From: a virus
Reading direction: 5' to 3' (one strand)
Length of the DNA: 41,547 nucleotides
IMG/VR virus record: IMGVR_UViG_3300045988_165964
Span: 1 to 41,547 of that record
The position numbers and the translations under genes are program-made. The notes beneath the pieces were generated by a model that saw nothing but the letters and a program-made list of their open reading frames with translations, ran no database searches and was not told where the DNA came from. Below, piece after piece: positions 19,949-35,380 of this stretch (position 1 is its first letter; every line of letters begins with the position of its first letter).

Positions 19949-20268
19949 TTTGCCTCCTTGGTAAGTTCAATAGAAGTTAGATCTATCTGTTCAAGATTGG
20001 TGATACTCTCATAGAGAAGATCTACAAGAGCTGTTGCCCATTCGCCGATATCTTTGAAACCCTTTTTTCTGACTTCATTCTTGAATTTATGAATCGTGTC
20101 TTTATCTCGGAGTTCTCGGTGAGAAACCGTACACAATACCCTATACAGGGACATGCCTGTTTTTTCCTTGATCTTAGCAATAGCCTCTCTATGATCTTCT
20201 GGAATATAACAGATATGCGGATTCTCTCTCGGAGCCGAGATTTTAATTTTGTTTTTCTTTTCGTACAC
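19945..20268 (-). CDS. hypothetical protein
   Basis: 107 aa, GTG start 9 nt after GGGAGG. Confidence 0.5.
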   Translation of the reverse strand: MYEKKNKIKISAPRENPHICYIPEDHREAIAKIKEKTGMSLYRVLCTVSHRELRDKDTIHKFKNEVRKKGFKDIGEWATALVDLLYESITNLEQIDLTSIELTKEAK

Positions 20269-21070
20269 GCTCGTTTACCTCCCACAAGGCTTTTAACAAA
20301 GTATTCTTCGGTTCTGCTCCGTTAAGAATAGCCTCAATTTCTTCTTTACCTCCGTCTGTATAGTCCCATCCTCTTTCATCGAAATCATAGTCAGCAGAGT
20401 ATTCTACATTTTTATCCCAGTGTCTTTCATAAAGATGAAGATCACCAACAGTATGATAATACAATCCGGCAGGAAGACCGACTTCTTTGGCAACGATTTG
20501 TAATAAAACCGTGAAGAATCCCATATCATACGGCAACCCAAGCCATATGTCGTTTGACCGCATATAAGTGTGAAGATTGAGCTTACCGTTAAAGCAAGTA
20601 AATTGCAACAAGCAAGTACACGGTGTGTCTTTTGTCGGTTTATTGCTTGCTTCTTTAATATGTAATATGCACTGACGATCGTATGGATTCTTCTTGAGTT
20701 TATCTATACAATACTGTAATTGGTCAAACCCGAATTTATGGAAAATTCTGTAACCATAAGCAGAGTTCACGGTTTCACCATCATCAGATAAGTCATACCA
20801 CATTTTGGCATATTTGCCGATATCTTCAACCTTGTTAGATCCGCTGAGATACCACTGTATTTCACCAACAAGGTATCTAAGGCTCAAATTTCTTTGAGGG
20901 TTGAGACATACATTATGATAAGGGTTTGAAACGAGAAAAGTGATATCTGTAACATGTTTGGTTTTTCCGATACGGCTTACAACGGTTTCACCGAAGTCAG
21001 AAACAAAATTATAGGCTCTCTCAAAAGCATCTGTAACCGTATCACACGGAATTGTAGGAATCATAAGCAT
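20243..21070 (-). CDS. thymidylate-synthase-family deoxypyrimidine hydroxymethylase, predicted dCMP-specific
   Basis: Gapless match to ThyA over the core: NPYDRQCIL, TPCTCLLQF (Cys151), MRSNDIWLGLPYD, GDLHLYERH. Asp182 (codon 20525-20527) replaces the dUMP-specifying Asn. MRSND, PCT and NSAYGY resemble T4 dCMP hydroxymethylase, and the ThyA C-terminal tail is absent. Confidence 0.75.
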   Translation of the reverse strand: MLMIPTIPCDTVTDAFERAYNFVSDFGETVVSRIGKTKHVTDITFLVSNPYHNVCLNPQRNLSLRYLVGEIQWYLSGSNKVEDIGKYAKMWYDLSDDGETVNSAYGYRIFHKFGFDQLQYCIDKLKKNPYDRQCILHIKEASNKPTKDTPCTCLLQFTCFNGKLNLHTYMRSNDIWLGLPYDMGFFTVLLQIVAKEVGLPAGLYYHTVGDLHLYERHWDKNVEYSADYDFDERGWDYTDGGKEEIEAILNGAEPKNTLLKALWEVNERVRKEKQN

Positions 21071-21510
21071 AGTCCTGTATCTCCTTTAATAGTAATATAA
21101 TCAGCTCCTGACTCTCTGAGTAGTTGACTGTAAGAGCCTCGGATATTTTTGATCCATCTTTCCATATCAAATTTCATATGCGGATCTCCCTCCCCTCGGT
21201 TTATGAGTCTTTGAATAATAACCTCAGTAGGACAGTCTACATAGATCAATACGGTTTGAGTCTGCTTAAAGAATTCAATGAGTTCTTTAAGTTCTTGTTC
21301 AGTAAGTTTACGCTCCTCAGGTGAATTGTAGACAAACTGACCAAAGCAGAAACGGTCAAATACAACTCCCCCAGGGGTTAACATTTGTTTGTATTCTTCG
21401 AGTGTTCTTGGTGTACTTTCGTGCCAATAGTACAGATTGAATCTTTCACAAAGATAGTTAGCCAAGGTTGATTTACCCGTACCGTCACATCCCTCAATAA
21501 CAATATTCAT
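21061..21510 (-). CDS. dNMP (thymidylate-kinase-like) kinase
   Basis: 149 aa. P-loop IEGCDGTGKST is typical of Tmk-like kinases. SD GGAGG. Confidence 0.75.
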   Translation of the reverse strand: MNIVIEGCDGTGKSTLANYLCERFNLYYWHESTPRTLEEYKQMLTPGGVVFDRFCFGQFVYNSPEERKLTEQELKELIEFFKQTQTVLIYVDCPTEVIIQRLINRGEGDPHMKFDMERWIKNIRGSYSQLLRESGADYITIKGDTGLCL

Positions 21511-22357
21511 TTATGAGTTCCTCCAGTTCATTTTGAGATATCTTAATTCTTTTTACAGGAGCGTTCTTATGAACAAGTTTAAGAACAGGATGACCGTCTT
21601 TTCCCTCAGTTAGTTTAGTGTAAGTTCCACAATCATACTTTTTACAAAGTAACGGATAAAGATTATTTCTAATCTTATCATCTTTTTCTGTTTTACTACT
21701 AAAACATCTTGAGGGAAAATTCTCGACTGTAGACTTTGTAAGAATTTGAATTACTCCTACAGAATGTCCTTTTGAAATCGCTGAGATAGCATAGTTACAA
21801 TCTTCAAAATACTCATCGGTTTCCGGAAGATTCTCAAGCGGGTACTTTGCATTGACAATAAGTATATCATCAATTTGAGATATGTTCCCATTCAATTCAA
21901 CTACACAATCCGGAGTTACACCATTGGCAAAACCGCGAGGTCTAACGGAAAGTAATGCACAATCTGGATATCTATGAAATATTGCCTGAGAGATTTCTTC
22001 AAGTCTTGCTCTCATAGCATCTATGTGAGTTTCACAATAAGATTTTCCAGATATACAAGGCATTCTATTATAGAATTGAATATAGGATAACAAGGAAACC
22101 CTATCATCCATCTGAGCATAGAAGTCAGCTCCGAGCTTTCTCATATACTTATCTATATATCTTCGAGTTTCACCGATATTATGTACATCTTCTTCAATTG
22201 CTACAATTATAGCCTCGGGAAGATTTTTCCTGTAAAGTTCATATTGTTCTTTTCTTACAAAAAAGATAAAAGCATCTTTGAATGTAGAAAAAGAAATAAG
22301 GTTTCTATAGATAGGATTGTTCTCCCATCTATCCATACTCGGAATAGCTATAATCAT
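21494..22357 (-). CDS. GT-A-like glycosyltransferase, paralog 1 (candidate DNA-base glycosyltransferase)
   Basis: ATG at 22357 after GAGGGAG, ATGA overlap with the rSAM stop. Shares IPSxxR, VRKEQxxLY, IGETRRxI, the DD acidic motif and EDxNYA with 23249..24142. Confidence 0.5.
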   Translation of the reverse strand: MIIAIPSMDRWENNPIYRNLISFSTFKDAFIFFVRKEQYELYRKNLPEAIIVAIEEDVHNIGETRRYIDKYMRKLGADFYAQMDDRVSLLSYIQFYNRMPCISGKSYCETHIDAMRARLEEISQAIFHRYPDCALLSVRPRGFANGVTPDCVVELNGNISQIDDILIVNAKYPLENLPETDEYFEDCNYAISAISKGHSVGVIQILTKSTVENFPSRCFSSKTEKDDKIRNNLYPLLCKKYDCGTYTKLTEGKDGHPVLKLVHKNAPVKRIKISQNELEELINEYCY

Positions 22358-23256
22358 TTTTCCCACTCCCTCTTTCTGATATTTGAATACGGTGTTGTTC
22401 TGTAAGTTACAATCTCGTAGTCTCTTTGAGTAGGCTCAGGCAATGTTTCTTTTCCCATCCTATCGGGAAGAAGTCCGGGACGAACGGGAGAAGTTGCACA
22501 TATAGAGCAAGGATGAAAACAGCGTATACCTTGATAGAGAAACCGACGAGCTGATTCAAAACGAGGATGCATCCAGATATCAGCAATTTCCATTTCATTG
22601 ACATTGGCGATACCGTACTCACCTCTGAAGTCATCACAACATATTGCAATATTACCATCCCAGCGTACATACATTTCCCTGAACACTTTCGTACAACGAG
22701 CTTTTTTAGGCTCAGAAAGCGGAGGCATTCCAGCACCGCAGTGATTGGTAAGATTTCTTGCAATTGTCGGTTTTGCTAACTCGATAGGTGGGTTAAAACT
22801 GATAGACTTTTTATTCTCAAAAAGTTTAGATCCGTCCCCATATACTCTGTAGGCAATGTTGTTTTCCTTTAAGAATGCTTTGATGCTATCCAGAGTACTG
22901 TCTATGTACTCATCAAAGATAAGTTCTGTCACACCTGCGGTTAATAGCCATTCAAGATTTCGTATGTCTTTCAAAACACTATAGCCGTTGGTCATCATTA
23001 TGATGTTTACATTAGGAAGTTCTTTTCTAAGATAAGCAATCATATTCAAATGATCCGGATGTAAAGTGGGTTCACCGTGTCCTGCTAAAAGTATCTTGTA
23101 GTGCCAATCGGTTTTCTTAAGACTTTCAACCGTATGAACAAGCGTGTCAAACTCCATAAAACGGAGAGTCTTTTCAAGTCCGGAAGTGCCACAAAATTCA
23201 CAATGACGGTTACAACCTTGAGTAAATTCTATTTGTATTGTATTCGGTTTATACAT
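22354..23256 (-). CDS. radical SAM enzyme with SPASM/twitch-like C-terminal Cys domain
   Basis: CNRHCEFC (Cx3Cx2C, codons 23191-23214), then GHGEPTL. C-terminal part CTKVF..WDGNIAICCDDF...IADIW...CFHPCSIC. ATG at 23256 after GGAGA. Confidence 0.85.
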   Translation of the reverse strand: MYKPNTIQIEFTQGCNRHCEFCGTSGLEKTLRFMEFDTLVHTVESLKKTDWHYKILLAGHGEPTLHPDHLNMIAYLRKELPNVNIIMMTNGYSVLKDIRNLEWLLTAGVTELIFDEYIDSTLDSIKAFLKENNIAYRVYGDGSKLFENKKSISFNPPIELAKPTIARNLTNHCGAGMPPLSEPKKARCTKVFREMYVRWDGNIAICCDDFRGEYGIANVNEMEIADIWMHPRFESARRFLYQGIRCFHPCSICATSPVRPGLLPDRMGKETLPEPTQRDYEIVTYRTTPYSNIRKREWEK

Positions 23257-24142
23257 GGTATAATCTCCAATAATTCCAATCAAATTTTACTGATGGGAAT
23301 CCTGTTTTAGATTTTTTATACACTATGCCAGGATGACCAGCATAGAATTTTTTTGCTGTTTCAGTATACCACTGATATCTAAGGTTAGCATCCGATATAC
23401 CAGAAGCATTCTCACAACCGCCAGGGCAAGAATTGATAGCAGGGCAGTTGTATAACATGTCGGTTATCGTTAAAGCCTTTCCACCGTGGTACATGATTTC
23501 AAATTGTAAAGCATAATCTTCATTTCCGCATTCGTAGTTTGGTCTATAATTTATGCCGTACTCACGCATAAAATCTAAATTGAGCCATATACATTGTATA
23601 CAAGCAGAAGAATTTACTTTTTGCGGAGCGTTAGCATAATTCATATGCCAACTATCTGGACGATAGATAACGCTACTGATTGCGATTTGAGGATCACTTT
23701 GAAGATAGATGTAATACATCCACAATTTTAATTCATCTGTCCATCTTTTAGGAGGAGTTCCATAATGTAACGAAACTTTACGCATGGATTCTTTTCCTCC
23801 TGAAGTAATTGACGGGACAGTGTGCTCAAGTTCGGTTATATCATCGTCAAATAAAAAGATATTTGAATAGTACGGCATGCACTTTTCAATGATTTGACGC
23901 CTTGTTTCACCGATTTCAGTAACATTATCTAAATAGAGAAAACCAACTTTTCCCTCCCATTTTTTATAGAGATCAGCCTGTTCTCTTCGAATACATAAAA
24001 CAATCTTCAATTCAGGTTCAACTGAAAGTTGTTTAAGGATCTTAGGATCAGGACGGTTATAACTCGGAACAAAAATAGGCGGGACTTGATCATCGGTTAT
24101 AAGCTGTTTCGCTGTTTCGAAATATTGTTCACTTCTATACAT
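23249..24142 (-). CDS. GT-A-like glycosyltransferase, paralog 2 (candidate DNA-base glycosyltransferase)
   Basis: 297 aa. GT2-like N-terminal strand IFVPSYNRPD, IGETRRQI, and the acidic motif FDDDI. Confidence 0.55.
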   Translation of the reverse strand: MYRSEQYFETAKQLITDDQVPPIFVPSYNRPDPKILKQLSVEPELKIVLCIRREQADLYKKWEGKVGFLYLDNVTEIGETRRQIIEKCMPYYSNIFLFDDDITELEHTVPSITSGGKESMRKVSLHYGTPPKRWTDELKLWMYYIYLQSDPQIAISSVIYRPDSWHMNYANAPQKVNSSACIQCIWLNLDFMREYGINYRPNYECGNEDYALQFEIMYHGGKALTITDMLYNCPAINSCPGGCENASGISDANLRYQWYTETAKKFYAGHPGIVYKKSKTGFPSVKFDWNYWRLYHV

Positions 24143-24144
24143 TG

Positions 24145-24714
24145 TTAGTTTACTCCGTAATGATTATAAAGATCTGAAAGCAATTGTCTTGAAGATATTC
24201 GAATACAACAACATCCAGACTTTGTCAGATTGTTGAAAGAGTTATCAATTTGTCGTACCCTGCTACGGGTATTGTTCTCGTTCAATGGCTTGGTATTTCC
24301 TGCTTGAAGTCTTCTATTTTTTATATTCTCAATACATTTTTCGATAGGGGTATCAAGATAATAAAACACTGTATTTGCTTGAGGAGAAATACGGTTAGAA
24401 AAGTTAGACCATCTTGAAGATAGAGTAGAAACTAAAAGACCCTCAAAAATGACATTGTAACCGCCATTGAGAAGAGTTTGTATTCTTTCTTCAATCTCAT
24501 CTTGAGATCTAACCGTATCACATCCTCCACAAGCATTGTAATATGAGCCTACAATTGCCCAGCCATTTCTGGAATTGTAATATCCGAGTATTTTTCCGGA
24601 AGAGTCTTTCCACTCATTCCAATCTTCTAATGAAAGAAGTTGATGAATAATGTAAGATTTACCACTTCCGGAAGTTCCTCGTATATTTATAACAATTTGC
24701 TTAGAATGTTCCAT
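24145..24714 (-). CDS. small P-loop kinase (candidate DNA 5-hydroxymethylpyrimidine kinase)
   Basis: 189 aa. Walker A GTSGSGKS (24655-24678) and Walker B-like VIFEG. The role assignment rests on gene context. Confidence 0.5.
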   Translation of the reverse strand: MEHSKQIVINIRGTSGSGKSYIIHQLLSLEDWNEWKDSSGKILGYYNSRNGWAIVGSYYNACGGCDTVRSQDEIEERIQTLLNGGYNVIFEGLLVSTLSSRWSNFSNRISPQANTVFYYLDTPIEKCIENIKNRRLQAGNTKPLNENNTRSRVRQIDNSFNNLTKSGCCCIRISSRQLLSDLYNHYGVN

Positions 24715-25660
24715 ATGTTACAAATTCCTTATATTTCTCTTTACGAATACCTTTCCAACCGTTTAATTCTCCCAAAATCTCATGAGGGACATTTTTATAT
24801 CTAATCTCAAATAATTGATTCCATATGTAATCAAATTCAGGAAGAACTTTCTTGTAAGTATTTAATTCTTGTAATCTTCTGTCTGTATAATATTCCAGAT
24901 ATCTAATTTGTTTATACAATTTGAAATAGCTACATAAATATCCTACAATTCTTGCAAAGTTTGTCTTATATCCCAATTTATTCTCTGTATAGATTATTAT
25001 TTGTTGTAAGAGATATTCTAATTCTTTTATTTCTGATTTAGTGAGATTTCTACCTTGTTTTCTGATTTCATAAGCCAAATCATCACGATAAGAAATAACA
25101 AAGATAGATTGTGCACAGGTCTTGCAAGAATTCCAATCAAGATATGCTTCAGGAGTTAGGTCTAACCCCAAAAAATTATAAACAGATTCCATAAACAATA
25201 GAGCTGAAAATCTTCCACAGTAATAAATTGAAGTAAACCAATTATACAAAGCCGTTTGAGATTGATTTATCAAAGACATAATGACTTCATATTGCGAACG
25301 GTTATCAATTTTATTTTGATAAGAAGATACAATTGAAACAAACTTATCATTTTGTTTTACCCAGCGTCTGTCCGATTGAAATATCAATCTATCTTTATAG
25401 ATATTCCAAAATTCAGTCAATTTATCAATTGTTGCATCTTTGATTGAGGGAAATATTCGTAATAGTAAAGCTGATGTTGTTACAGAGTAACATGTCGAAT
25501 ACAAAAAAGATGCCCATATCTTAGACTCATTGTCATTACCTTGACAAAAATGTAAAAGATTATCCTCATCCCTGTCGTTTTGATTTTTTCGCTTAGAATA
25601 AAATCTCACAAACATATCTATTCGAAAACTCTTGTAATCATCATTAGGAATATTGTACAT
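24701..25660 (-). CDS. large helical protein, candidate aGPT-Pplase-like base transferase
   Basis: 319 aa, translationally coupled to the P-loop kinase gene. Assignment by context and vague motif memory only. Confidence 0.35.
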   Translation of the reverse strand: MYNIPNDDYKSFRIDMFVRFYSKRKNQNDRDEDNLLHFCQGNDNESKIWASFLYSTCYSVTTSALLLRIFPSIKDATIDKLTEFWNIYKDRLIFQSDRRWVKQNDKFVSIVSSYQNKIDNRSQYEVIMSLINQSQTALYNWFTSIYYCGRFSALLFMESVYNFLGLDLTPEAYLDWNSCKTCAQSIFVISYRDDLAYEIRKQGRNLTKSEIKELEYLLQQIIIYTENKLGYKTNFARIVGYLCSYFKLYKQIRYLEYYTDRRLQELNTYKKVLPEFDYIWNQLFEIRYKNVPHEILGELNGWKGIRKEKYKEFVTYGTF

Positions 25661-30435: not shown

Positions 30436-30924
30436 TCAGTTATTTGTATCAGTTTCATCACAATTCCAATCTGCTATATGAATAACTTCTACTCCGTTAT
30501 CTTCGAATAGTTTAGCAGCATTTTCTGAAATAGGAAATTCTCTACCATAGACAACGGTTTTGATACCCGCAGATACAAGAGCATAGGCACAATTATCACA
30601 GGGATAACGAGTAACAAAAGCCGTAGCTCCTTTCAACTGTTCTTTACGCTCTTTAGGAACATGTAAAAGAGCATCAACCTCACTGTGTATAACTTTACAA
30701 ATTTCCCTATGTTCTTTAGAATTATCCCCGAAAAGTTTTACTCGTAAACAACCATCTTCTTTACAGTTTGTTCCACGGTTAGCACCCTTGGCTAAGACTG
30801 TACGCCAAGCAGTCTCTTCTATAAGATAACAGCCCACTGCGGTTTTAGTACAGGTTGTATTGTTTTTAGCATAATTGTCAGCAAGTGTCAAAATGTTTTT
30901 CATTTGACCTTTGGTGTATCTCAT
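30436..30924 (-). CDS. dCMP deaminase-family (CDA-fold) zinc deaminase
   Basis: 162 aa. HSEVDAL (H-x-E) and PCDNC (PCxxC) zinc motifs. Confidence 0.85.
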   Translation of the reverse strand: MRYTKGQMKNILTLADNYAKNNTTCTKTAVGCYLIEETAWRTVLAKGANRGTNCKEDGCLRVKLFGDNSKEHREICKVIHSEVDALLHVPKERKEQLKGATAFVTRYPCDNCAYALVSAGIKTVVYGREFPISENAAKLFEDNGVEVIHIADWNCDETDTNN

Positions 30925-30926
30925 AT

Positions 30927-31940
30927 TTATCTCTCCTTTGGGATATATTTATTTCTTGGTCTTCCCGTATTTGTTACCGCTCGGATATATTTACTGATTT
31001 CACAATGGCAATTCTGTAATGACATTACATTCATATAACGATCCTCTTTAGGAAGATCAGTGAATATTTCATCAGGATTCCACGGAAGTTCCAACCAATT
31101 ACAAATATCAACCCAATGATCCCTCAGCCAAAAAAGACTTTCTGCATAAGACATACCATCTTTATTTTTGAATATAAGATCAAGACTTCTACGAGCTCCG
31201 GGACCTGCTACAACGAATTCATTCTCACTCCACAATGATTCCGGACAATAAGTTACATCAACAAAAATTTGATATGCCAAGAAATAGCCTATTCCGTCAA
31301 GCGTTTGTAAAGTGTTAACAAACTCTTCCGCCGTTGTACAATTTCCCAAAGTTGCTATGAAATCTTCTTTATGATATAATTCTTCTATGTAGCGTATGAC
31401 CGCATATATGGGTTTGACTCCTTTCATCGGATCATAATAGGAAGAAATATATCCCAAAGCAGCACACATAGCACGCTTTACACCGCCTGTATTGAAAGCG
31501 TTTGTAAAGAAAGCATAATCATTTGGTTTACTTTCTACATATGTATGTATTTTATCCCAGTCAACTCCATTATCAAAATTGATGGGCATAAATTGCTTAC
31601 AAGTTTCACTTTTATTGATAACTCTAAAGAGAATCAAGTTACAGATTTTACTCGCCCAGCTCATAGCATCCTCAGGAATAGAGCATATATTATCTATAAC
31701 CCAACGAGTCTCACGATCATGTTCTCTACGAACATTTGTAAACCTATATTCTTGAAGAATAGGGTTATTTGTCCACGGAGCAGGACGCTTTTCAACATCT
31801 TTAAGAATATGAATTTTGTAGCGTTCTGTTACCCATGTATAGAGATGTTTGAAATTTTCTTCATTAATCTCTGCTTCGGCTTTTAAGATCCTATCTTTGT
31901 TACATCCCAAGTATGGAATATCATTTTGCTTATTGAGCAT
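30927..31940 (-). CDS. large helical protein, candidate aGPT-Pplase1-like DNA base hypermodification enzyme
   Basis: ATG at 31940 after GGAGA. The motif PAPWTNNPILQEYRFTNVRREHDRETRW and a later AGPGARRSL recall the family annotated as DNA base hypermodification proteins. From memory only. Confidence 0.45.
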   Translation of the reverse strand: MLNKQNDIPYLGCNKDRILKAEAEINEENFKHLYTWVTERYKIHILKDVEKRPAPWTNNPILQEYRFTNVRREHDRETRWVIDNICSIPEDAMSWASKICNLILFRVINKSETCKQFMPINFDNGVDWDKIHTYVESKPNDYAFFTNAFNTGGVKRAMCAALGYISSYYDPMKGVKPIYAVIRYIEELYHKEDFIATLGNCTTAEEFVNTLQTLDGIGYFLAYQIFVDVTYCPESLWSENEFVVAGPGARRSLDLIFKNKDGMSYAESLFWLRDHWVDICNWLELPWNPDEIFTDLPKEDRYMNVMSLQNCHCEISKYIRAVTNTGRPRNKYIPKER

Positions 31941-32142
31941 TTTTATCTCCTTCCTTGGTATAATTTTCACATAAGGTTATTATTCTCAATATAGAACACA
32001 AAGCTCCATAATCTTGATAGCAACCTTTACTGATTCCTTTAGAACACAGTTCATCTACGGTATTCTTAAAAGTATTGTAACCTTGTCCTGTTGTGTCTTT
32101 GAATTGATCTAACTCTTTTGTTAATTCTTCAATATTGTTCAT
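31930..32142 (-). CDS. hypothetical protein
   Basis: 70 aa, ATGA-type coupling to the upstream gene. Confidence 0.5.
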   Translation of the reverse strand: MNNIEELTKELDQFKDTTGQGYNTFKNTVDELCSKGISKGCYQDYGALCSILRIITLCENYTKEGDKNAQ

Positions 32143-34747: not shown

Positions 34748-34907
34748 AAGGAAATTTCCTCCTTTTTATACTATTCGTCAATTCACGAACATAACATTGG
34801 TAGTAATCTTTCTTCTTGCAAAGATATATACAATCATAACAACTATTACAACCTTTACGATCACGAATAACTCTTACACCATGTTTATACACTTGTATTG
34901 ATTTCAT
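34704..34907 (-). CDS. small Cys-rich protein
   Basis: 67 aa, SD GGGAGG, ATGA overlap with the MazG-like stop. Contains CNSCYDCIYLC...C. Confidence 0.5.
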   Translation of the reverse strand: MKSIQVYKHGVRVIRDRKGCNSCYDCIYLCKKKDYYQCYVRELTNSIKRRKFPYDNTTCEDFESKEQ

Positions 34908-35380
34908 TTGTTTCCTCCCAAATAGCGTTGTTTGGTTCTCAGAGCTTTTTTGTCTATAATATCAGAGAGCTCCTCAGCCGTAAAGTTGAAAATTTGACAT
35001 AAGTACTGACACATAAATAAAACATCTGCCAACTCCTCTTTTATATCATTTTTACTTGCTTCGGCAAAAGCATTCTCACGGTTATATAGACGAGTTCTAC
35101 GCTCTTTTACAAGAGCTTTCGTAAGTTCAGACATCTCTTCTATACAAACATCTATCTGACTGTCTTTGCCGTATTTTTTAATCATTTCTTCAATCACTTG
35201 TTCAGGCTTGAAGACTTTATAGTCATATTCAGCTTTTGCTTTACGATACAAAAACCGAGCGGACATTTCGTCATATGTACTATAAATGTAATACTGGTTA
35301 TTTGAATCCATAGTGATTACTTGAAAGAAATCACGCTCCCCATCATATTTGGGTATTTGATGAAATATAGGTTCTCTCAT
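34904..35380 (-). CDS. MazG-like nucleoside triphosphate pyrophosphohydrolase
   Basis: 158 aa. EEMSELTKAL ... EELADVLFM matches the EExxE...ExxD MazG signature. Confidence 0.7.
   Translation of the reverse strand: MREPIFHQIPKYDGERDFFQVITMDSNNQYYIYSTYDEMSARFLYRKAKAEYDYKVFKPEQVIEEMIKKYGKDSQIDVCIEEMSELTKALVKERRTRLYNRENAFAEASKNDIKEELADVLFMCQYLCQIFNFTAEELSDIIDKKALRTKQRYLGGNK

Follow-up and report, generated by a model that had tools for sequence, protein, structure and literature searches.

A predicted phage DNA-glycosylation cassette joining TAGT-family glycosyltransferases to a BtrN-like radical SAM enzyme

Introduction

Hypermodification of phage DNA defeats restriction enzymes and CRISPR, and complicates both sequencing and phage engineering. 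The known pathways of DNA glycosylation consist of glycosyltransferases, sometimes accompanied by nucleotide-sugar epimerases. In the T-even phages a dCMP hydroxymethylase and a deoxynucleoside monophosphate (dNMP) kinase act before replication to provide 5-hydroxymethylcytosine (5hmC), and a GT-B enzyme (the alpha- or beta-glucosyltransferase) adds the first glucose. TAGT, the T2/T6 enzyme modelled as a GT-A glycosyltransferase, adds the second (PMC13216743). Here, we analyze a cassette from a metagenomic virus, IMG/VR record IMGVR_UViG_3300045988_165964 (positions 1 to 41,547, hereafter the window), in which two TAGT-family glycosyltransferases, A and B, stand on either side of a radical S-adenosylmethionine (SAM) enzyme, and propose a pathway in which the radical enzyme would tailor a sugar carried on 5hmC.

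The cassette resembles the T-even pathway in its pre-replicative dCMP hydroxymethylase and dNMP kinase, in the predicted placement of more than one sugar on 5hmC, and in the family (PF20691) and GT-A fold of its glycosyltransferases, the fold being assigned by structural model for B and by profile alignment only for A; the B profile matches T6 ggt at 87.8% probability. It departs from that pathway in that both of its glycosyltransferases are of the TAGT type, and in the insertion of a radical SAM gene and of a pair encoding a kinase and an amino acid:DNA transferase (ADDT). No GT-B glycosyltransferase gene was seen within or beside the cassette. The TAGT family itself was reportedly defined by Iyer et al. 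in 2013. The TAGT and phage GT-A enzymes that have been characterized have R...DDD...EDY/F motifs in common and attach sugars to 5hmC or to glucosyl-5hmC in DNA (PMC13216743; bioRxiv 10.1101/2023.12.21.572611). Those described by Pyle et al. (2023) place mono- to tri-saccharides on 5hmC and have TarP as their top PDB match; subclass I employs two successive glycosyltransferases and subclass II a glycosyltransferase with an epimerase, and contigs with ThyS-associated GT-A genes were surveyed as well (bioRxiv 10.1101/2023.12.21.572611). In our cassette B has the complete motifs and TarP among its best PDB structural matches, A has them with the third Asp replaced, and two successive transfers are predicted as in subclass I. 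Unlike here, the clusters tested in that study make 5hmC after replication, through a C5-methyltransferase and TET, and their tailoring partner is a nucleotide-sugar epimerase; a radical SAM partner is not mentioned there (bioRxiv 10.1101/2023.12.21.572611).

The only radical SAM enzyme that we found described in phage DNA hypermodification is gp53 of phage M6, whose cluster also holds a 5-hydroxymethyluridine (5hmU) DNA kinase (5-HMUDK) and an amino-acid transferase (PMC8989533). It belongs to another family, is akin to spore-photoproduct lyase and acts on thymine by rearranging a glycine adduct, whereas the cassette enzyme is BtrN-like and paired with glycosyltransferases; an identity as a gp53-type isomerase was rejected on this ground. 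Full-text literature searches returned no publication that connects DNA glycosylation with a radical SAM enzyme. The 5-HMUDK/ADDT systems of phages ViI, M6 and PaMx11 have Asn177-type dUMP hydroxymethylases and no glycosyltransferases. The window contains all three of the corresponding families (the kinase, ADDT and the HMUDK helical-domain family HMUDK_hel), but its hydroxymethylase is of the Asp, or cytosine, type. We regard the cassette as belonging to known phage DNA glycosylation. What sets it apart is a radical SAM partner that recurs widely and of which our searches found no description, a second TAGT of a rare lineage, and the unusual presence of thymine-type modules on a cytosine-type hydroxymethylase background.

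Results

The cassette lies on the minus strand, with genes that abut or overlap in the transcription order ADDT, P-loop kinase, B, radical SAM, A, dNMP kinase and thymidylate synthase (TS) homologue. Its core comprises B (23249-24142), the radical SAM gene (22354-23256) and A (21494-22357). A preliminary description made from the sequence alone had reported overlapping start and stop codons around the middle gene, and these are real: the ATG of A and the TGA of the radical SAM gene share the ATGA at 22354-22357, and the radical SAM ATG overlaps the B stop by 8 nt (23249-23256). We placed the start of A at the ATG of the 21494-22357 frame; a GTG occurs upstream at 22366, but relatives of A are 287-288 aa long. 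The radical SAM protein begins with MYKPN, as do its relatives.

By itself, B (297 aa) scores 22.3 bits against PF20691 (1.4e-4), under the cutoff of 27.5, and matches phrog_842 at 3e-11; most of its 91 clusters of relatives carry PF20691. An AlphaFold2 model of the protein (pLDDT 94.2, pTM 0.92) was matched by Foldseek to the GT-A enzymes K4CP, RmlT, TarP and ppGalNAcT2 in the PDB (E 5e-6 to 1e-4) and to viral TAGT proteins in BFVD (TM 0.80, E 1.6e-24), including a beta-glucosyl-HMC-alpha-glucosyltransferase. The first strand of the model bears FVPSYNRPD, the GT2-like VPSYNRPD strand of the preliminary description. The R...DDD...EDY/F set is complete (R30, D99-D100-D101, E208-D209-Y210) and conserved among relatives, and the invariant DDD at 99-101 directly follows strand 94-98 (beta-4), the position of the DxD site in GT-A enzymes. 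Neither a non-transferase fold nor the loss of a DxD-type site, the two outcomes named in advance as counting against the assignment, was seen in the model of B. Model and sequence together support B as a TAGT-family GT-A glycosyltransferase. Because it is the sole glycosyltransferase in many cassettes, B most likely acts on 5hmC directly, and we propose that it would add the first sugar.

Protein A scores 44.4 bits against PF20691 (cutoff 27.5), and A and B both match phrog_842, a group that takes its name from the T-even beta-glucosyl-HMC-alpha-glucosyltransferase. The GT-A-like nature proposed for both proteins is borne out by their membership in the TAGT family, and for B also by its model. 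Aligned pairwise with BLASTP, as had been suggested, the two show only a weak similarity, a single 38-residue match with 37% identity (E 7e-4). Their homology emerged when alignments were built from each protein and its relatives in metagenomes (5 clusters for A, 91 for B) and the family profiles were compared with hhalign, which aligned 245 columns at 98.3% probability (E 2.5e-14). The motifs PSxxR, VR(K/R)EQ..Y, IGETR, DD and (F/N)ED fall in register between the two, confirming the colinear series noticed earlier. In the joint alignment P6, R35, Q38, Y42, D84, D85, D186 and G197 (A numbering) are invariant, and the Arg of PSxxR, R..Q...Y, the T-R of IGETR, the two Asp and the ED pair are invariant or nearly so.

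To call A and B clearly a diverged duplicate pair, as the preliminary description did, nevertheless overstates their kinship, as each is nearer to other TAGT lineages than to its partner. The A profile scores its best matches outside its own lineage, which are other TAGT lineages, at ~51 bits and members of the B family at 17-37 bits; the B profile scores A-family members at 23-48 bits and other TAGT lineages at 68-400 bits. A tandem or local duplication is unlikely on these scores, by which A and B are two distinct TAGT subfamilies joined in one cassette. Searches of both proteins with tblastn against 50,697 isolated phage records, and of both profiles against PDB sequences, gave no match, and the sole match in a DNA similarity search was the TS gene of Agathobaculum phages.

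Relatives of A are scarce. A word-index search found 5 clusters, and an exhaustive HMMER search with the A profile over 1.84 billion protein representatives found only 2 below E 1e-10, which makes A, as judged from sequence databases, a very rare TAGT lineage. Its motif reads R10 ... D84-D85-R86 ... E185-D186-C-N-Y189. A occurs with B in four independent contexts and was never seen without it, and this strict association makes it most likely that A extends the product of B or makes it more diverse. This distribution, with B always present and A only as an add-on, fits the sequential addition of two sugars that had been suggested for the pair; the other suggestion, that the two transferases act on different bases, found no direct support. 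An arrangement in which A extends the product of B would parallel both TAGT in T6 and the clusters with two glycosyltransferases that Pyle et al. described.

The protein encoded between A and B matches Pfam Radical_SAM (1e-13) and SPASM (5e-10, 39.9 bits) and belongs to a family of >170 clusters. As first described, it is a CX3CX2C radical SAM enzyme (C15/C19/C22). The family also conserves GHGEP, a GGE-like SAM motif, and the cysteines C173 (~90%), C188, C206, C207, C250 and C253. The second, SPASM-like cysteine cluster of the preliminary description stands in part: a C-terminal cysteine cluster is present and the SPASM hidden Markov model (HMM) matches, but the auxiliary region (C188...G201-x4-C206, then C250-x2-C253) accounts for one auxiliary cluster, of the twitch type, and not for a full SPASM domain. 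No CX5CX3C follows C250-x2-C253, and the seven-Cys motif CX9-15GX4C...CX2CX5CX3C...C is absent.

Together, CX3CX2C, the GGE-like motif and one four-Cys auxiliary cluster give the enzyme the features of a BtrN-type twitch protein. The best solved relative of the family profile is BtrN itself (PDB 4m7t, E 8.5e-16), aligned over core and auxiliary domain in two segments, with the next structure at ~4e-7, and the NCBIfam twitch model NF033640 matches residues 194-264. In BtrN the Cys triad is C16/C20/C23, and both enzymes have the twitch-type auxiliary region GxxxxC...CxxC. The two are nonetheless distant kin: the phage family has the additional conserved C173 and C207 and a tail of ~47 residues, and its substrate is presumably a sugar borne on DNA. 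The tail (PIRPGLLPD...REWE; window 22354-22494) is conserved, follows the last Cys pair and extends past the end of the BtrN alignment; it could be an element contacting DNA or a partner protein.

BtrN, a twitch-domain enzyme with one four-Cys auxiliary cluster, oxidizes a secondary alcohol of 2-deoxy-scyllo-inosamine (PMC9012708). Since BtrN is the nearest relative and the second half of a SPASM domain is absent, oxidation or epimerization of a sugar C-H is a better guess for the phage enzyme than the C-C chemistry on the appended group that had been put forward. From this nearest characterized relative we infer a two-electron oxidation of a carbohydrate secondary alcohol, and the two extra conserved cysteines, C173 and C207, may leave room for epimerization. 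NeoN is a radical SAM epimerase that works in this way. A role as peptide maturase was rejected, as no conserved precursor peptide gene was present. Among isolated phages the closest homologue is the 'BtrN protein' of Campylobacter phage vB_CjeM_WX1 (L018, 1237-8243), which lies beside other radical SAM genes, an amidinotransferase and an aminotransferase; being only 27% identical and part of a different cluster of several radical SAM genes, it was set aside as a counterpart. In one variant (L006, 6149-8060) two tandem BtrN-like radical SAM paralogues follow B, which suggests two successive radical tailoring steps.

To see which genes travel together, we read 17 loci found by exact-protein look-up, 28 IMG/VR loci found via B, 80 IMG/VR loci found via the radical SAM protein and 5 genome loci, all scored with our own HMMs. 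Across ~110 related metagenomic loci, B stands beside the gene for an Asp-type hydroxymethylase (the TS homologue) wherever one is in view, usually with the dNMP kinase gene between; in most related loci with the TS gene in view, that kinase separates it from the cassette. In the lineage of the window, the slot between an SSB-like gene and the dNMP kinase-TS pair is filled by B alone, B-radical SAM, B-radical SAM-radical SAM, B-A', ADDT-HMUDK-B, ADDT-HMUDK-B-radical SAM or ADDT-HMUDK-B-radical SAM-A. The full set is found in the window, in L003 and, in part, in L001. Only B is constant; the kinase/ADDT pair, A and the radical SAM gene are gained and lost independently of one another. In L017 A is present with no radical SAM gene, and radical SAM genes are often found where A is absent.

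Of the 80 IMG/VR loci found via the radical SAM protein, 50 have a TAGT-like gene within 1.5 kb, directly adjacent in 32 of these. In GTDB genomes, a scan for members of the radical SAM family yielded only 5 loci, all in metagenome-assembled genomes (MAGs), and the two genes are neighbors in 4/4 close genome loci (Lachnospiraceae, Acutalibacteraceae and Bacilli MAGs). Orthologous glycosyltransferases with and without a radical SAM neighbor are up to 82% identical (L032 vs L035; 70% for L007 vs L022). In unrelated phages, members of the radical SAM family sit beside TAGT genes together with genes for a PIG-L deacetylase, a UDP-glucose dehydrogenase or WbqC. Because the gene comes and goes with little change in the glycosyltransferase and keeps sugar-tailoring company elsewhere, its product is best read as an optional sugar-tailoring enzyme rather than a supplier of the donor sugar.

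Several loci depart from this pattern. In L017 (2556-5831), an unknown 371-aa protein and a 124-aa CTP_transf_like protein accompany B and an A-like gene, without a radical SAM gene. The 124-aa protein is about the size of the glycerol-3-phosphate cytidylyltransferase TagD, and the donor in this variant may be activated with CDP, for example glycerol phosphate. In a Lachnospiraceae MAG (L049, 2452-10406) and in L015 and L016, all of them unrelated loci of anaerobe phages or prophages, the BtrN-like radical SAM and TAGT genes are accompanied by a gene for another radical SAM protein (437-472 aa) and by two ParB_N genes; L049 and L016 also contain a C5-cytosine methyltransferase, and no TET or TS homologue was seen in the three. 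Here the large radical SAM protein and ParB might form an oxygen-independent substitute for TET that makes the hydroxymethyl handle. In two loci with a radical SAM gene and no TAGT (L087, 4042-6598; L073, 3468-6592), the neighbors of the radical SAM gene encode an unannotated protein of 310 aa and one that weakly matches PIG-L deacetylase; hhalign ruled out the 310-aa protein as a TAGT. Many of the 30 contigs in this TAGT-less group are 50-100 kb long.

The base on which the sugars would be built is indicated by the TS homologue (20243-21070, minus strand; Pfam Thymidylat_synt 7e-35). A 2026 study assigned N177D to a dCMP substrate, L143D/E to a hydroxymethyl product and D169N to flavin-/O2-dependent 5-hydroxy-dCMP synthases (PMC13326640). 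The TS homologue has Asp at the positions of E. coli ThyA Asn177 (PYD) and Leu143 (KDTPC) and keeps Asp169 (RSND), the diagnostic-residue pattern of T6 gp42; with Cys146, N177D, L143D and D169 it has the residues of a T4-type dCMP hydroxymethylase as defined there (PMC13326640). The retained Asp169 rules out a 5-hydroxy-dCMP synthase. By contrast, position 177 is Asn in dUMP hydroxymethylase homologues of SPO1-like (gp29), M6 and ViI-like phages. In the PDB, the top matches of the TS homologue include the L. casei N229D mutant, and the CMP hydroxymethylase MilA also ranks high. Asp occupies the Asn177 position in 32/32 related loci with a readable TS active-site motif, and no second TS homologue and no dUMP-type (Asn177) hydroxymethylase was found in the window. 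Because it carries the residues of a T4-type dCMP hydroxymethylase, the TS homologue is probably a 5-hydroxymethyl-dCMP (5hm-dCMP) synthase, and the base probably 5hmC, not 5hmU.

The adjoining dNMP kinase gene (21061-21510, minus strand; Thymidylate_kin 1.3e-11, phrog_761) would convert the modified dNMP to its dNDP. Farther along the minus strand, a dCMP deaminase (30436-30924; PF00383 1e-15) and a MazG-like NTP pyrophosphohydrolase, a candidate dCTPase (34904-35380; PF03819 6e-6), fit a T4-like nucleotide scheme. The related enzyme of Agathobaculum phage AB434P2 (OP172633.1; L009, 3838-4500) is annotated as a deoxyuridylate hydroxymethyltransferase, yet it has Asp at the specificity position (GFPYDVFNF) and is more likely a dCMP hydroxymethylase.

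Upstream of B, on the same strand, lie the optional genes for a P-loop kinase of the 5-HMUDK family (24145-24714; PF18748, 34.4 bits, cutoff 27) and an ADDT-family protein (24701-25660; PF18724, 31 bits, cutoff 26.2; phrog_3271 1e-21). A standalone HMUDK_hel protein is encoded at 30927-31970, also on the minus strand (PF18723, 190 bits, cutoff 25). All three exceed their Pfam cutoffs, and the window has the combination of kinase and ADDT that defines thymidine hypermodification clusters. In some of the related loci the kinase and ADDT genes occur together. With duplicate contigs counted as one, the ADDT-HMUDK pair is found with an Asp-type hydroxymethylase in 9 other loci (L003, L004, L021, L025-L028, L036 and one IMG/VR locus). 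This pairing suggests a clade of ADDT/HMUDK proteins that acts on a 5hmC-derived substrate, of which our literature searches found no description. In the IMG/VR locus L026 (3-3327), two B-like TAGT genes are interleaved with the module, as B'-ADDT-B-HMUDK, upstream of the Asp-type hydroxymethylase.

The window as a whole (~41 kb) has plus-strand structural genes to ~19.5 kb and minus-strand replication and nucleotide-metabolism genes from 19.6 to 38.5 kb. It looks like a complete phage genome of ~41 kb, and the host is probably among anaerobic gut Clostridia.

Discussion

We propose a scheme in which the TS homologue would produce 5hm-dCMP, which the dNMP kinase, possibly with the MazG-like enzyme, would feed to replication, yielding 5hmC in DNA. 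B would then move a sugar from a host nucleotide-sugar to the 5hmC hydroxyl in DNA, and the BtrN-like enzyme would abstract hydrogen from a C-H of this first sugar. The enzyme could then oxidize a secondary alcohol to a ketone, the electron passing to the auxiliary cluster as in BtrN, or it could epimerize or deoxygenate the sugar. A would add a second sugar onto the tailored first one, and the kinase and ADDT would form an independent optional module that diversifies the modification further. We put the probability of the overall scheme, from 5hmC DNA through a first sugar by B and radical SAM tailoring to a second sugar by A, at roughly 50%; base, order of steps, acceptors and radical chemistry are all predicted. 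A broader version is more tentative, and we advance it as a speculation worth pursuing: that the radical SAM enzyme edits a sugar already on 5hmC, that phages of anaerobes share a widespread combinatorial toolkit of this kind, and that a base derived from cytosine is also a substrate of the kinase and amino-acid-transferase families known from the hypermodification of thymine.

Several observations weigh against the scheme. No TAGT is detectable within 5 kb in 30/80 of the loci found via the radical SAM protein, and the radical SAM family is therefore, on this survey, not tied exclusively to TAGT. The loci that seem to lack a radical SAM gene were viewed over 12-15 kb only. A has DDR where the TAGT family has DDD, the third Asp being replaced by R86, and its GT-A fold is deduced from the 245-column profile alignment to B alone. 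Finally, the HMUDK, ADDT and HMUDK_hel families have so far been characterized only on 5hmU, which is awkward for a pure 5hmC scheme. This misfit may be explained by clades that act on 5hmC or on the sugar, or by a deaminase-made pool of 5hmU, in which case the phage would modify two bases.

The radical SAM enzyme could instead act on the free nucleotide-sugar donor, in the manner of the epimerases paired with phage GT-A enzymes, and B or A would transfer an unusual nucleoside diphosphate (NDP)-sugar. The position of its gene between the two glycosyltransferase genes agrees with such a role, BtrN and its chemical relatives use small-molecule sugars, and the glycosyltransferases of subclass II depend for their activity on a partner sugar epimerase (bioRxiv 10.1101/2023.12.21.572611). 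An obligate supply of the donor is, however, hard to square with orthologous glycosyltransferases that remain 70-82% identical with and without a radical SAM neighbor. The same radical SAM family also sits beside PIG-L-type deacetylases, which usually act on glycoconjugates and not on NDP-sugars, and we consider donor-level chemistry unlikely, although it deserves serious attention. We hold it distinctly unlikely that two bases are modified in parallel, with the deaminase turning part of the hydroxymethyl-dCMP/dCMP pool into hydroxymethyl-dUMP, TAGT and radical SAM acting on 5hmC, and HMUDK and ADDT building an amino-acid adduct on 5hmU; A might then glycosylate another acceptor than B. The kinase (HMUDK_HMUD1), ADDT and HMUDK_hel matches belong to families whose characterized members act on 5hmU (PMC8989533), and the genes for the deaminase and HMUDK_hel adjoin each other in the window and lie near one another in L003 and L004. 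Yet a dUMP-type (Asn177) hydroxymethylase is missing, A occurs without HMUDK and ADDT in L017, and the ADDT-HMUDK pairing with an Asp-type hydroxymethylase in 9 related loci would fit a cytosine-directed clade equally well.

That the whole locus is a thymidine hypermodification cluster, with the TS homologue as dUMP hydroxymethylase and the glycosyltransferases making a base-J-like glycosyl-5hmU, strikes us as improbable. The annotation of the closest isolate-phage TS homologue, the HMUDK and ADDT neighbors and the structural likeness of phage GT-A enzymes to trypanosome JGT all point that way, but the Asn177 position is Asp in the window enzyme, in the Agathobaculum protein that bears this annotation and in every readable related locus, whereas the three homologues from phage groups with 5hmU-derived bases (SPO1-like, M6 and ViI-like) have Asn. 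A might also be a paralogue that lacks catalytic activity or has a regulatory role, perhaps as a subunit that confers specificity or DNA targeting on B or on the radical SAM enzyme. It is never found alone, and the third Asp of DDD is Arg in A and Asn in P0217. Some GT-A enzymes, however, function without a full DxD, and R10, D84, D85, E185 and D186 are invariant within a protein strongly conserved over its whole length; we give this idea very little credence. Our preferred reading remains glycosylation of 5hmC by B, with radical tailoring of that sugar and its extension by A.

The cassette is compact, comprising five genes plus the hydroxymethylase and dNMP kinase, and is amenable to reconstruction, with natural variants lacking each module as potential controls. 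If the proposed scheme is correct, DNA glycan biosynthesis would gain, through a dedicated radical SAM partner, a radical chemistry that needs no oxygen, and gut phages would be predicted to contain new bases bearing keto-, epi- or deoxy-sugars. The pathway would then represent the first case in which a radical SAM enzyme tailors a glycan on a nucleic acid.

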